A stretch of DNA of 37,007 nucleotides, from contig CANROP010000002.1 in the NCBI GenBank assembly GCA_947632265.1, forward strand, positions 1 to 37,007. The letters run 5' to 3'. Source of the DNA: an uncultured Bacilli bacterium. GTDB lineage: Bacteria; Bacillota_I; Bacilli_A; RF39; UBA660. The notes beneath the pieces are model-generated. The model made no database searches. It worked only from the letters and a program-made list of their open reading frames with translations, and was not told the origin of the DNA. Both the position numbers and the translations under genes were made by a program. Position 1 is the stretch's first letter; each line of letters opens with the position of its first letter. This document shows, one piece after another, positions 12,171 through 31,399 of the stretch.

Positions 12171-12566
12171 GTGAAGAAGAAAAATTTAGTTTTAATTTTT
12201 ATATTAGGCTTAATGTTACCAATTATAAATGTACAAGCATATACATCAACTAGTTGTGGAAATGTAACTAATATTCCTGTAAAAGTTCCACAAATTACTA
12301 GCTTAGTTGTTTCAATGGTACAAATACTTATACCAGTTATATTAATAATTGTAGGTTCTATTGATTTAATAAAAGGTGTGGTAGCTCAAAAAGAAGATGA
12401 GATAAAAAAAGGACAGCAAAAATTTATAAAAAGGCTTATTACAGCAGCTATTATATTTTTTGTAATAGTTTTGGTTAAATTAATTATAAGTTTAGCTGCT
12501 GATAGTGATGATACAAATAATATTATAGATTGTATGGATTGCTTTTTATATAATAAATGTGGGTAG
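12171..12566 (+). CDS. VirB2/TrbC-like two-TM pilin-like protein, paralog 1
   Basis: 131 aa. Signal peptide (..INVQA|YT), Cys (SCGN), TM1, charged loop KGVVAQKEDEIKKGQQKFIKRLI, TM2, C-terminal CxxC-x6-C. Confidence 0.6.
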   Translation: MKKKNLVLIFILGLMLPIINVQAYTSTSCGNVTNIPVKVPQITSLVVSMVQILIPVILIIVGSIDLIKGVVAQKEDEIKKGQQKFIKRLITAAIIFFVIVLVKLIISLAADSDDTNNIIDCMDCFLYNKCG

Positions 12567-12575
12567 GATGATAGA

Positions 12576-13280
12576 ATGAAGAAGAAAGTACTTTTAAGTG
12601 TTATTATAGTTATGATGTTACTTTATGCTCCAACTGTTTTAGCTAAACCTATAATAGGTTGTGATTCAGTTTTACCTGGAGTAATGATTGATGAGAAGAT
12701 AACTTCTGCAACTAGTACTATTATCACGATTATTAAAATTGTTGTACCAATACTTTTAGTTATATTTGGATCATTAGATTTAGTAAAAGGTGTAATTGCT
12801 TCTAAAGATGATGAAATTAAAAAAGGACAACAAATATTTATAAAAAGATTAATCGCTGGAGCTTTAGTTTTCTTTGTTATATCTATTGTTCAATTAGTAA
12901 TAAATTTTGTTGCTGGAAGTGATAATGAGAACATGTGGTCATGTGTAAATTGTTTTCTAAATGATTGTGAAACAATGCCAGATGAAGAAGATATAAAATC
13001 TTTAATATTCAAGAAAACTAAACTTTTAAGAAATAGTATAGGATATATGCCAGATATCGATAAAGATCAGGCACAGTCTTACAATACAGATATTGAATCT
13101 ATTGTTAAAAATAATAATTTAAGTTATGATGAATTAAATGAAATAGATTTAAAATATGATGAGATGATTTCATTAACTCAAAGCGAAGATGATTCAACAC
13201 CTATAGATCCAGAAAATTTTGGTAAATTTTATAATCTATTAGAGAAATTATATAATGATTTATCTAATAAATATGAGTGA
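12576..13280 (+). CDS. VirB2/TrbC-like two-TM pilin-like protein, paralog 2, with acidic C-terminal extension
   Basis: 234 aa. Signal peptide (..TVLA|KP), GCDS, TM1, loop KGVIASKDDEIKKGQQIFIKRLI, TM2, CVNCFLNDC, then ~100 extra acidic residues. Confidence 0.6.
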   Translation: MKKKVLLSVIIVMMLLYAPTVLAKPIIGCDSVLPGVMIDEKITSATSTIITIIKIVVPILLVIFGSLDLVKGVIASKDDEIKKGQQIFIKRLIAGALVFFVISIVQLVINFVAGSDNENMWSCVNCFLNDCETMPDEEDIKSLIFKKTKLLRNSIGYMPDIDKDQAQSYNTDIESIVKNNNLSYDELNEIDLKYDEMISLTQSEDDSTPIDPENFGKFYNLLEKLYNDLSNKYE

Positions 13281-13300
13281 TTAAAAATGTGGAGGGTTTT

Positions 13301-14413
13301 ATGTTAGAAACAATAAAAAAATTAGATAGAAAAACATTAGTATTACTTGGATGCATGATATTGATTCCAATATTACTAATATTATTTTTAGTAATAATAA
13401 AAGGCTGTACTGGTGGAGTAAGTTATGAAAAATATGAAAAGAATATGATAAGTGCTGCAGAAAAATATTTCAAAGATAATGATTTACTTCCAAAAGAAGA
13501 ATCACAAACTGCTACAGTAGAATTAAGTCAGTTGATTACTGATAAGTATATAAAAGATACTTCAAAAAAATTAGATGATGATACTTGTAGTGGTAAAGTA
13601 ACTGTTAGAATGAATGGATCTAGTATTGAAGAAAATAATGGTGGATATTTAAATTATACAGTGGATTTATCTTGTGATGATTATAAAACACCTACTTTAA
13701 AATCATTAATAATGAGTGATTTAGCTACAGAGGATTCTGGATTATATAAACAGGGTGATTACTACATTTTTAAAGGTGATGATGTAGATAATTATGTAGA
13801 ATTTTATGGTGTTATTTATAGAATATTAAATATGGATAAAGATGGTATAATAAAACTTGTTAAAGTTGAAAGAGAATCTACAAGTCAAACATGGGATACA
13901 AAATATAATATAGATACTAAGAGTTCAACAGGAATAAATTTATATAAAGATAGTTCAATAAGAAAGAAACTATTAAATTATTATAATACTAATAAAAAGT
14001 TAAGAGAAGCTAAAAAGAAAATAGTTTTATATGATATATGTGTTGATGCAATAAGTGAGAATGATATTTCTATTGAGCTAAAATCAACATGTGAAAATTA
14101 TTTAGAAAATCAACCTATAACACTTATAAATACAACTGATTATGCGAGTGCGAGTCTTGATAAAAATTGTACAAGTATTGTTTCAAGATCTTGTAGAAAT
14201 TATAATTATTTAAAATCGACTGGTTTATATAGTTGGACTTTTGTATCAGTAGCAGAAAATTCATATCAAGTATATTATTTAACAAACGGTATTATTAAAT
14301 CACAAGATGCTAATGAATATGGAGAATATAATATAGTAATATATATAGATGGATTAGAACTAGTAGAAAAAGGTACTGGTAAAGCAAAAAATCCATATAT
14401 AATAAAAAAATAG
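13301..14413 (+). CDS. bitopic membrane protein with pilin-head-like ectodomain, function unknown
   Basis: Start placed at ATG 13301, 4 nt after GGAGGG at 13291-13296; alternative GTG 13277 overlaps the previous stop. One TM, then a segment (AAEKYFKDNDLLP...VELSQLITDKYIKD...CSGKVTV) resembling type IV pilin head domains, then a ~230-aa beta-rich domain. Confidence 0.55.
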   Translation: MLETIKKLDRKTLVLLGCMILIPILLILFLVIIKGCTGGVSYEKYEKNMISAAEKYFKDNDLLPKEESQTATVELSQLITDKYIKDTSKKLDDDTCSGKVTVRMNGSSIEENNGGYLNYTVDLSCDDYKTPTLKSLIMSDLATEDSGLYKQGDYYIFKGDDVDNYVEFYGVIYRILNMDKDGIIKLVKVERESTSQTWDTKYNIDTKSSTGINLYKDSSIRKKLLNYYNTNKKLREAKKKIVLYDICVDAISENDISIELKSTCENYLENQPITLINTTDYASASLDKNCTSIVSRSCRNYNYLKSTGLYSWTFVSVAENSYQVYYLTNGIIKSQDANEYGEYNIVIYIDGLELVEKGTGKAKNPYIIKK

Positions 14414-14459
14414 TAAAAAAATTAACAAATTATATGATTAGAAGTATTGTTAGAAAGTG

Positions 14460-30337: not shown

Positions 30338-30352
30338 GTTTATAATCCTTTT
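30329..30352 (+). terminator. rho-independent terminator overlapping the stop codon
   Basis: Stem GGATTATA (30329-30336) / TATAATCC (30341-30348), loop GGTT, then TTTT. Confidence 0.6.
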
Positions 30353-30358
30353 AAAATG

Positions 30359-30387
30359 TTTACATAAACTTTATTTTATTGTATAAT
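30359..30387 (+). promoter_or_regulatory. promoter of VirB2-like paralog 5 (duplicate of 29396-29424)
   Basis: TTTACA at 30359-30364, 17 nt, TATAAT at 30382-30387. GGTGAT at 30394-30399, ATG at 30404. Confidence 0.55.
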
Positions 30388-30403
30388 TAAATTGGTGATA
30401 CAG

Positions 30404-31399
30404 ATGAAAAAAATGCTTTATGTATTAAGTTTTATTACAATTTTTTTAATTCTAAGCACTGATGTAATTGCTAAGACAAAGACATATACTTACAAAGATT
30501 TTTATATTGATTTAGATAAGGATAATTGTTCAATAGTTCAAGAAGATGGTGAGAGAAAATACAAGTGTACAATTAACAAATTTAAATTACATGGTATTGA
30601 TGGGGAAAAAGCCTCTACATCTTTAAGAGAAATTAATTTATATACATTTGAATCTGACGAAGTAATGAATAATAGTGACAAATTTTGGGCTAATCTAACT
30701 GTTTGTACCATAGAGACCTTAGCTTCAGCAGGGACCAATATAACACTTGCAAAAGTGTATACAAGTTCATCGCTTATTGACAACAAATTATTTACCTCTA
30801 TAGAGCGAGAGTGCTTTCAGTATAATGTAAGCGATACAGATGAGGAAGATAAAGTACACGATTCATGTGAATTATATTCAAAATATCATGATGAAATTGA
30901 AGAAAATGTCGAAAGCTATATTGCTTCAACCAATCAAGAAGAAAAACTTACATATAAAAATGAATATAATAAAAATGTAGATCATTTTAAAAATGTGTGT
31001 AGTCAAATGATGAGTTTTGTTAATTCTACAGATCCATGTGTTAAAAGATGCTTAGAGCTTCAAAGTGATGTAAAAGCCTGGAATAGACAGATGGGAAATT
31101 CTGGTATAGGTGGATGCGGATTTTCAGATACTTTGCTTGCATGGATAAAAAATATAATACGTGTAATAAAATATATAATACCAGTAATAGTAATAGTATT
31201 TGGTATAGTTGACTTCATAAAAGCAATAGCTTCAGATAAAGATGATGAGATGAAGAAGGCACAAGGAAGATTTATAAAAAGATTAATAGCTGCAGCTTTA
31301 ATATTTATAGTACCATTTATAATAGAATTCATATTAGATAAAGCAGGATTTATAAATGATGAATGTGCAGTAGATTTATTAGGAAAGATAGGATTATAA
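30404..31399 (+). CDS. VirB2/TrbC-like two-TM protein, paralog 5, with ~230-aa divergent N-terminal ectodomain
   Basis: ATG 30404 chosen by analogy with paralog 4; the ORF-track TTG 30392 overlaps the SD. Signal peptide (..DVIA|KT). C-terminal 94 aa nearly identical to paralog 4. Confidence 0.6.
   Translation: MKKMLYVLSFITIFLILSTDVIAKTKTYTYKDFYIDLDKDNCSIVQEDGERKYKCTINKFKLHGIDGEKASTSLREINLYTFESDEVMNNSDKFWANLTVCTIETLASAGTNITLAKVYTSSSLIDNKLFTSIERECFQYNVSDTDEEDKVHDSCELYSKYHDEIEENVESYIASTNQEEKLTYKNEYNKNVDHFKNVCSQMMSFVNSTDPCVKRCLELQSDVKAWNRQMGNSGIGGCGFSDTLLAWIKNIIRVIKYIIPVIVIVFGIVDFIKAIASDKDDEMKKAQGRFIKRLIAAALIFIVPFIIEFILDKAGFINDECAVDLLGKIGL
31114..31399 (+). repeat. copy B of the ~283-nt direct repeat
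   Basis: See 30055-30337. Contains an extra TTA codon (DLLGKIGL versus DLGKIGL). Confidence 0.85.

Follow-up and report, generated by a model that had tools for sequence, protein, structure and literature searches.

The window analysed here is a stretch of 37,007 nucleotides from an uncultured Bacilli bacterium (GenBank assembly GCA_947632265.1, contig CANROP010000002.1), and it carries five related genes, termed paralogs 1 to 5, in the open reading frames (ORFs) that begin at positions 12171, 12576, 14512, 29441 and 30404. On profile and alignment comparisons, the five genes are part of a very large, lineage-specific expansion of the family PF18895 ('Type IV secretion system pilin', T4SS_pilin). 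They sit in a ~27-kb locus that joins a tight adherence (Tad)-like pilus module to a type IV secretion system (T4SS) of the monoderm type. The best reading, judged moderately probable, is that their products are subunits of a surface filament or conduit that is built by the T4SS and carries swappable ectodomains. All real genes of the window lie on the + strand, and its GC content is 23–35%.

The five ORFs had been grouped by an earlier sequence-only reading of the window. All of them exist, and the core that they were said to have in common, a hairpin of two hydrophobic helices, was confirmed by alignment and BLASTP. The core alignment of the five paralogs contains 18 invariant columns, which include a Cys before the first transmembrane helix (TM1), P, G and D in or after helix 1, the loop residues K..K.DE.KK.Q..FIKR, F and V in helix 2, and a Cys after the second transmembrane helix (TM2). 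The most distant pair tested, paralogs 1 and 4, is matched by BLASTP at E 2e-17, and paralogs 3 and 2 are matched at E 2e-32. The DNA encoding the shared core (197 nt) is 63–75% identical among all five paralogs.

Paralog 1 (12171..12566, + strand; 131 aa) includes a signal peptide, an outer segment of ~20 aa with one Cys, the hairpin, and a CxxC-x5-C motif. Paralog 2 (12576..13280, + strand; 234 aa) includes a signal peptide, the hairpin, a CxxC-x4-C motif, and an acidic C-terminal tail, which had been put at ~100 aa and was found to be 109 aa long with 25 D/E and 11 K/R residues. Paralog 3 (14512..14913, + strand; 133 aa) has one Cys before TM1 and a CxxC-x11-C motif. In paralog 4 (29441..30337, + strand; 298 aa), a signal peptide is followed by a beta domain, a Cys-containing helical domain, Cys-Gly, the hairpin, and a single C-terminal Cys, and paralog 5 (30404..31399, + strand; 331 aa) has the same architecture with another ectodomain. 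Sec-type signal peptides with V-x-A cleavage sites were found in paralogs 1, 2, 4 and 5 only, in agreement with the earlier statement that paralog 3 lacks one. The mature proteins of paralogs 1–5 contain 4, 4, 4, 12 and 10 Cys, respectively. The CxxC-x-C motif reported for paralogs 1, 2 and 3 stands, with its spacing corrected from x5–11 to x5, x4 and x11. The single Cys before TM1, reported for the same three proteins, proved too narrow a claim, as it is present in all five together with at least one Cys after TM2.

The start of paralog 3 was assigned to ATG 14512 and not to the ORF opening at 14497, because a perfect promoter (14460–14488) and a GGGAGG ribosome-binding site (RBS) precede it. 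Similarly, the start of paralog 5 was assigned to ATG 30404 and not to the ORF opening at TTG 30392, because of the promoter and RBS block that it shares with paralog 4. Both starts had been chosen in the sequence-only reading, and the promoter and RBS positions back that choice.

The PF18895 model has 71 positions and a gathering cutoff of 26.6 bits, which is passed by paralog 4 (28.4 bits) and paralog 5 (29.1 bits) over model positions 1–71. PF18895 is matched at E<0.001 by 52 of 55 homologs of the long paralogs, and these homologs hit essentially no other family. When the short and long subfamilies were compared by hhalign, they were aligned at 99.7% (E 3e-26), and at the level of profiles they unambiguously form one family. 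As judged from these matches, the paralogs belong to PF18895; their likeness to VirB2 lies in topology, name and context, and homology to canonical VirB2 is not demonstrable.

In the five paralogs, the loop between the helices contains 6–7 K/R residues, as compared with 0–3 in the flanks, and ectodomain extensions occur at either terminus across ~8,800 clusters of homologs. Both termini are predicted to face outward, with the basic loop inside. The pilin-like topology proposed earlier is, as a prediction, borne out by these features together with the signal peptides and the even Cys counts given below. In the AlphaFold2 (AF2) model of paralog 3 (pLDDT 79.6), helices 27–60 and 64–98 form a hairpin, and in that of paralog 4 (pLDDT 79.4) the ectodomain consists of a beta domain and a Cys-bearing helical domain. 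A Foldseek search of BFVD with the paralog 4 model gave nothing below E 0.6, and no known fold was matched by the ectodomain. One homolog of the long paralogs includes a match to the SUEL-lectin domain. Conservation of the hairpin itself (P 94%, G 92%, D 95% and F 94%; tip KEDEIKKGQ..FIKR 80–97%) is unusually high for a membrane anchor.

The distribution of Cys residues was analysed in a core family set of 235 core-bearing ORFs from 77 loci. The number of Cys in the predicted mature protein is even in 207 of the 235 members (binomial p = 6e-35). About half of the cytoplasmic proteins that served as controls have an even number (VirB4 27/54; type IV coupling protein, T4CP, 14/25), while nearly all Tad pilin-like proteins do (54/54 for the 80-aa protein, and 58/61 and 60/61 for two others); hence, Cys parity was taken as a readout of extracytoplasmic disulfides in this lineage. 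In 218 members, the 24 residues that precede TM1 hold a single Cys, and the number of Cys after TM2 is odd (1, 3 or 5). Therefore, if all Cys are paired, one bond joins the N-terminal and C-terminal outer segments, and this bond could form either inside one subunit or across two adjacent ones. In the long subfamily, C206 (before TM1) and C289 (the sole Cys after TM2) are invariant among the 55 homologs. In the AF2 model of paralog 3, strands 14–17, 22–25 and 124–127, which come from both ends of the protein, lie beside the CxxC-bearing C-terminal helix. A disulfide staple had been suggested from the window; the Cys rule lends strong statistical support to it, and we infer a bond that ties both outer ends and would be the redox counterpart of VirB2/TrbC cyclisation.

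A profile search returned >5,400 homologs at 90% clustering; few have a source name, and they are labelled 'hypothetical protein'. An exhaustive HMMER search of 1.84 billion representatives gave 8,791 clusters (50% identity) at E≤1e-3 and 4,100 at E≤1e-10, in which the core is either C-terminal and preceded by an ectodomain or N-terminal and followed by a C-terminal extension. To sample loci, one genome per species was scanned and ±10 kb was fetched around each match, which gave the 77 loci. Their record titles are nearly all those of uncultured Bacilli, Tenericutes, Mollicutes, Mycoplasmatota and Erysipelotrichaceae from rabbit, roe deer, mouse and human gut, and include Firmicutes bacterium CAG:884 and a circular 1.2-Mb metagenome-assembled genome (MAG). 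A few loci titled Muribaculaceae, Bacteroidaceae, Roseburia or Actinomycetes look like mislabelled bins. There are 1–8 core-bearing ORFs per locus within the fetched ±10 kb. In Firmicutes bacterium CAG:884 (9959–17501 of the fetched locus, L071), eight core-bearing ORFs are consecutive and most have ectodomains of 230–490 aa, and another relative (L017, 6028–8823) has three tandem paralogs of ~300 aa with near-identical ends.

The array usually consists of three paralogs with signal peptides, a gene for a bitopic protein of ~380 aa, and a signal-peptide-less paralog of ~128 aa, often followed by one or more long paralogs and then VirB6. Neighbouring genes were found on the same strand and at near-equal spacing, namely those for a TadZ-like protein in 64 of the 77 loci, VirB6 in 59, VirB4 in 54 and the Tad ATPase in 48, with genes of the Tad module being present in 44–64 loci. 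Overall, the locus is syntenic in 50–60 of the 77 loci, and housekeeping genes flank it. The placement of the array, with the Tad module on one side and the T4SS module on the other, is strictly conserved. Paralog 3 is the most conserved member of the family, and the gene immediately after it is in every case the VirB6-like one, the distance in the window being 21 nt. Two species in which one contig supplied two loci repeat the arrangement of the whole window, with a long paralog again placed after DUF2238 and before RNase R, and in a third species a long paralog lies beside PGA_cap and SmpB genes; the order RmuC, DUF2238, long paralog, RNase R, SmpB was scored as kept in these three species. 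Identity between the window and the first two species is 92% for VirB4, 86–87% for the Tad ATPase, 79–82% for RNase R and 81–88% for SmpB. The conservation of VirB4 thus matches that of the two housekeeping proteins from these genomes, and the values point to vertical inheritance under strong constraint.

The best VirB4 match in 72,556 plasmids is 28% identical, and a tblastn search of the same plasmids with paralog 3 found no relative. Using Pfam, no relaxase, integrase or transposase was found in the 35 main ORFs of the 37-kb window, which also contains no tRNA. From gene order and conservation, the locus is chromosomal and vertically inherited. The word 'conjugative', which had been applied to the filament, is therefore doubtful.

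The promoter of paralog 3 (14460..14488, + strand; TTGACA-17-TATAAT) is a perfect sigma-70 consensus. A sigma-70 match of at least 11/12 is present upstream of 76% of 75 paralog 3 orthologs, as compared with 0–5% for machinery genes (VirB4, VirB6, the ATPase and others), and the only gene comparable to paralog 3 is that for the 80-aa Tad pilin-like protein (45% of orthologs). Conservation of a strong private promoter, as for structural polymers, suggests that the product is present in high copy number, and paralog 3 is a candidate for the abundant core (major) subunit. Promoter-like sites were also found on the + strand before paralog 1 (12108..12136; TTGACT-17-TATAAT with TG before the -10 element, an 11/12 match in the intergenic gap, followed by the RBS GAGGTG), paralog 4 (29396..29424; TTTACA-17-TATAAT) and paralog 5 (30359..30387; TTTACA-17-TATAAT).

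Paralogs 4 and 5 are mosaics of conserved ends and divergent middles. Their 59-nt promoter blocks (29390–29448 and 30353–30411) are 90% identical, the ectodomain-coding middle is 45% identical, and the hairpin-coding 3' 283 nt (30055–30337 and 31114–31399) are 97% identical, with the switch in identity falling exactly at the Cys-Gly codons. This pattern suggests either gene conversion or a swapping of ectodomain cassettes in which the conserved ends stay in place.

Under the filament or conduit reading, each protein would be a membrane hairpin of two helices of ~35 residues with both ends outward. The charged tip, D-x2-K-x5-KEDEIKKGQ-x2-FIKR, would be cytoplasmic while the subunit is in the membrane and would line the lumen on polymerisation, and the outer ends would be tied by a disulfide from the single pre-TM1 Cys to one post-TM2 Cys. 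The signal-peptide-less paralog beside VirB6, with its own near-consensus promoter, would provide the abundant core subunit. An inner-membrane complex of VirB6, VirB3 and VirB4 would recognise the tip and pull subunits from the membrane, and the extracted subunits would be assembled into a surface filament or a wall-spanning conduit. The other paralogs would be alternative or minor subunits that show different binding surfaces via N- or C-terminal ectodomains, diversification being achieved by swaps of ectodomain cassettes between the conserved 5' and 3' ends. The system is more likely to serve cell-to-cell contact, of the kind associated with the T4SSs of Patescibacteria, than self-transfer of a mobile element.

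A wider proposal, put forward tentatively and considered unlikely as a whole, is that a true pilus, dependent on the T4SS, is made by these gut Bacilli of reduced genome on their walled monoderm cells, with the signal-peptide-less hairpin as a major subunit that is closed by a disulfide in place of cyclisation, and with minor subunits that carry exchangeable adhesin cassettes. Together with the fused Tad module, this pilus would mediate obligate contact with other gut microbes for exchange of DNA, protein or nutrients, in a lifestyle like that of Patescibacteria, and the T4SS of Mycoplasmatota/Bacilli would be the source of the pilin-T4SS combination of Patescibacteria.

Several results weigh against a pilus built of these hairpins. 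Paralogs 1–3 score 10.4–15.2 bits with PF18895, below the cutoff. Among 70 homologs of the short paralogs, PF18895 is matched by 39 at E<0.01 and the unrelated 7tm_1 family by 25, so that the PF18895 matches of the short homologs stand only modestly above transmembrane noise. Kinship with VirB2/TrbC by sequence, which had been proposed, was not upheld: no paralog matches PF04956 (TrbC/VirB2) at E≤1, and hhalign comparison of the 235-member core with 120 VirB2 homologs of the Agrobacterium clade gave 0.1%, equal to reversed-sequence controls and no better than the VirB3-like family from the same locus. The VirB2 alignment is narrow (Neff 3.6), which makes this a weak negative that very remote homology could escape. 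A profile search of all PDB sequences at E≤10 returned a chemokine receptor and a designed protein and no pilin, and Foldseek searches of PDB with both AF2 models returned generic helical hairpins at E >0.6 and no pilin. The best Foldseek matches had E 2.3 for paralog 3 (HtrII hairpin) and E 0.65 for paralog 4; simple hairpins give little signal in such searches. Packing into a helical filament of the VirB2 type would be difficult if each subunit carried an ectodomain of 200–500 aa, and the genome may hold a relaxase gene outside the window.

The Tad-like type IV filament module (6254..12102, + strand) lies directly upstream of the paralog array and includes Pfam matches to RcpC and T2SSE. It encodes, all on the + strand, a CpaB-like protein (NCBIfam CpaB), a T2SSE ATPase (7070–8185) with best NCBIfam matches to VirB11, TrbB and TadA, two polytopic TadB/C-like proteins, an 80-aa Cys-rich pilin-like protein (9970–10212), two pseudopilin-like proteins (starts at 10232 and 10690, extending to 11106), and a 327-aa TadZ-like protein, which was recognised from its sequence and has no database match. 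Because this module has pilin-like genes of its own, the hairpins are not needed as Tad pilins. Four proteins (those at 9970, 10232 and 10690, and the DUF5411 N-terminus at 3798–3870) begin with a leader M-K/R-E-[AS]-x-G that runs into a hydrophobic helix, an arrangement that looks like a non-canonical class III (prepilin-type) signal; no prepilin peptidase gene was found in the window. The last of these proteins (3798–6224; 808 aa) includes DUF5411 and SpaA repeats, a Pro-rich linker and, at its end, a Cys-rich C-terminal domain. Its gene is the region of highest GC in the window (0.35 versus about 0.26), and good alignment with related loci is limited to the N-terminal ~133 aa (70% identity).

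Inside the array, a 378-aa bitopic protein is encoded at 13277..14413 (+ strand). It has an N-terminal transmembrane helix and a Cys-containing outer domain and no Pfam or NCBIfam match, and its position is kept in 37 loci. VirB5-like, VirB8-like and adhesin roles have been named as possible for it.

The T4SS genes follow paralog 3 on the + strand. The VirB6-like polytopic protein (14934..17555; 873 aa) matches Pfam TrbL_4 at E 1.4e-8, and its best NCBIfam match is MMCAP2_0566 (E 5e-9; 35.8 bits, cutoff 90). It has a hydrophilic, highly charged C-terminal extension of ~450 aa ('extended VirB6'), and when species are compared by BLAST, identity is found mostly within the first ~410–470 residues. 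The next gene (17573..17893) encodes a VirB3/PrgI-like protein of 106 aa with two transmembrane helices, which was assigned by its position before VirB4 and is conserved in 55 loci. It has no Pfam or NCBIfam match and gave a weak BLASTP match (E 9e-4) to the PrgI-like gene of plasmid CP074574, which is itself sub-threshold for PF12666. VirB4 is split into an N-domain (17790–18410) and an ATPase (18410–20194), which cover positions 98–276 and 295–891 of the Mbov_0397 model, the best NCBIfam match (347 bits, cutoff 590); median VirB4 identity across 54 loci is 81%. The N-domain ORF begins before the VirB3-like gene has ended, and the split is kept in 54 loci and on CP074574.1.

Downstream of virB4 are genes for a 645-aa protein of unknown family (20206–22143, + strand) and a lipoprotein-like protein (22143–22808, + strand). 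The former has a long Asn-rich low-complexity N-terminal region and no Pfam or NCBIfam match, and its C-terminal domain, which contains Cys and His, looks like a papain-like wall hydrolase. A wall hydrolase with M23 peptidase and lysozyme domains (22821–24071, + strand; Pfam Peptidase_M23 and Phage_lysozyme) is the analogue of VirB1, and the T4SS gene set further includes two small bitopic proteins and the VirD4-like T4CP (25071..27128, + strand; Pfam T4SS-DNA_transf, E 1e-59). The latter passes the cutoff of the NCBIfam CD1115 family (302 versus 250 bits). It is followed by genes for a rhodanese, RmuC and DUF2238, paralogs 4 and 5, RNase R, two PGA_cap proteins, and SmpB; a distance of 2.3 kb, occupied by three housekeeping genes, separates the T4CP gene from paralogs 4 and 5.

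A serious alternative, rated possible and on the unlikely side, is that the hairpins are non-filament parts of the T4SS, either translocon components (VirB3-like or CDS15-type) or VirB6-docked anchors that display adhesin ectodomains at the cell surface and stand in for the PrgB-type adhesins of other Gram-positive systems. In the integrative and conjugative element (ICE) of Mycoplasma, CDS15 has the same place before the VirB6-like CDS16 and VirB4 (CDS17), and it is described as VirB3-like and essential for transfer (FEMS review). The general lack of pili in Gram-positive T4SSs and the lack of a structural match between the hairpins and any pilus subunit are consistent with either form of this alternative, and the large ectodomains, one of them with a lectin-domain match in a homolog, would suit surface display better than tight helical packing. 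However, the predicted N-out/C-out topology is opposite to that of VirB3, which has both termini in the cytoplasm, and a separate VirB3/PrgI-like gene at 17573 precedes VirB4; identity of the hairpins with VirB3/PrgI was rejected on these grounds. A simple anchor for display would need neither the near-invariant residues in the transmembrane region (P, G, D and F) nor the near-invariant tip, and arrays of several short paralogs that lack ectodomains would be left unexplained. Both forms are also at odds with the high copy number suggested by the conserved strong private promoter of paralog 3.

The sequence-only reading had named a pilin-like Mbov_0395 family next to a transmembrane protein of such elements. 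The family exists (NCBIfam NF045849), and the pairing of paralog 3 with a VirB6-like gene holds, but membership was rejected, since the scores are 10.2 bits for paralog 1 and 10.3 bits for paralog 4 (E 0.4–0.5) against a cutoff of 40 bits and the others have no match. Just two of the 70 homologs match NF045849 at E<0.1.

An ordinary conjugative element (ICE) of Firmicutes, in which the hairpins would be accessory conjugation proteins for transfer of its own DNA, is improbable. It would account for the homology of VirB4, the VirB6-like protein and the T4CP to proteins of conjugative plasmids and ICEs, the T4CP passing the CD1115-family cutoff, and for the coupling protein as such, which suggests an exported substrate; among plasmids, 2,343 records have a VirB4 match and 1,529 of these were typed as conjugative. 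On the other hand, a relaxase, an integrase, a tRNA and an att-like boundary are all absent from the 37 kb. The VirB4 of lineage orthologs is 81–92% identical, as compared with 28% for the best plasmid protein, and macro-synteny with housekeeping genes extends to at least three further species. The plasmids searched contain no relative of paralog 3, and the core profile found none in 2.9 million viral contigs.

It is very improbable that the hairpins are small membrane proteins unrelated to secretion (holins, bacteriocin-immunity or stress proteins) that merely lie near a T4SS: two-helix hairpins are generic and give weak matches to other membrane families (MamI in 61 of 70 homologs, 7tm_1, MscL), but the array keeps its place between the two modules, PF18895 is the sole family matched by 52 of the 55 long members, a PF18895-like hairpin also accompanies TrbL_4, PrgI and VirB4 on a Mycoplasmatota plasmid, and a holin or phage origin was rejected because paralog 4 alone has a PHROG match at E<0.01 (a borderline one, E 0.009, of its ectodomain to a family of unknown function) and no relatives were found in viral contigs.

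The window shows PF18895 arrays in a chromosomal T4SS locus with no relaxase in 37 kb, and this T4SS is widespread in uncultured gut Bacilli. The pilins of Patescibacteria need not stem from diderm systems, and the gut Bacilli are a second lineage in which to look for a T4SS pilus of monoderms. Testable features are the Cys staple, which possibly replaces cyclisation, the tip as the likely surface recognised by the machine, and the exchange of ectodomain cassettes. A possible experimental handle on such a machine is plasmid CP074574.1 of strain zrk4, described below. A literature search found no description of this family or locus in Bacilli, nor of a T4SS in Bacilli of the RF39/RFN20 type.

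Reviews state that VirB2-type pilins are absent from the T4SSs of Gram-positive bacteria, with Patescibacteria as the sole exception, that VirB2 homologs are lacking in monoderms, and that no monoderm systems other than those of Patescibacteria have the potential for a conjugative pilus (PMC12857230; PMC12102498; PMC4027160). In Patescibacteria, essential arrays of pilins are found in relaxase-less T4SS loci (PMC10633639, PMC12102498, PMC12857230), and these arrays (Ca. Southlakia epibionticum SEML1_0006–0019, TM7x) are the closest described system. Shared features are a monoderm host, a chromosomal Gram-positive T4SS (like mating-pair formation class FATA, MPF-FATA) with no relaxase nearby, tandem arrays of 2–11 divergent small pilin-like genes within the T4SS cluster, co-occurrence of type IV pili, and the Pfam family PF18895 (PF18895/PF04956 in Patescibacteria). 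In contrast, the host here belongs to Bacillota (by record titles, uncultured gut Bacilli and MAGs related to Mycoplasmatota), the locus encodes a coupling protein whereas none has been recognised in S. epibionticum, the T4SS is physically fused to a Tad-like module, and many members carry ectodomains of 100–500 aa. The near-universal Cys rule and the near-invariant charged tip are unreported for Patescibacteria, a comparison made with published descriptions and not with sequences.

The VirB2/TrbC proteins (Agrobacterium T-pilin and RP4 TrbC), the conjugative pilins of diderm T4SSs, are cyclised head to tail. Like them, the hairpins have a signal peptide, two hydrophobic helices, a basic loop and, as predicted here, both ends outside, and they adjoin genes of the virB3, virB4 and virB6 types. 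The ends would be joined in both cases, by cyclisation in VirB2/TrbC and by the putative disulfide here. The hairpins differ in having no detectable sequence relationship to VirB2/TrbC, longer helices and a longer charged tip, no TraF-like cyclase seen in the window, one paralog that lacks a signal peptide, ectodomain fusions, and a monoderm envelope.

The Mycoplasma ICE (CDS15/NF045849) also has a small two-helix protein directly before the VirB6-like protein (MMCAP2_0566/Mbov_0396) and VirB4 (Mbov_0397), but that system is a mobile element of wall-less cells and the gene is present in a single copy. In archaea, the Ced and Ted systems (CedA1, TedC) reportedly form a VirB2-like two-helix pilus for DNA import, in cells that have no outer membrane and from a relaxase-less chromosomal system. 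They differ in their archaeal host, and no sequence or fold match to them was found here. We know of no Cys staple or ectodomain fusions in the Ced/Ted systems.

The gene order described here was also found on plasmid CP074574.1 (6640–24022) of the cultured cold-seep Mycoplasmatota bacterium zrk4, which carries short and long PF18895-like hairpin proteins with sub-threshold PF18895 scores of 21.6 and 19.3 bits. A hairpin protein of 112 aa and a 781-aa protein with a C-terminal hairpin are followed by TrbL_4, a PrgI-like protein, the VirB4 N-domain, VirB4, and a Tad cluster, which in this case is canonical and has Flp-type pilins. The plasmid was typed as non-mobilizable by MOB-suite. It differs from the locus in the window in being plasmid-borne, in the lack of Cys in the short hairpin, and in its VirB4, which is 28% identical, and its hairpins were missed by the family profile built from the core. 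Given the same gene order on the zrk4 plasmid, the association of hairpin, T4SS and Tad genes seems to be old within this branch of Bacillota. What is new in the present locus is the Bacillota host, the fusion of the T4SS to a Tad module, the Cys-staple rule, and the fusion of ectodomains to many members of the family.

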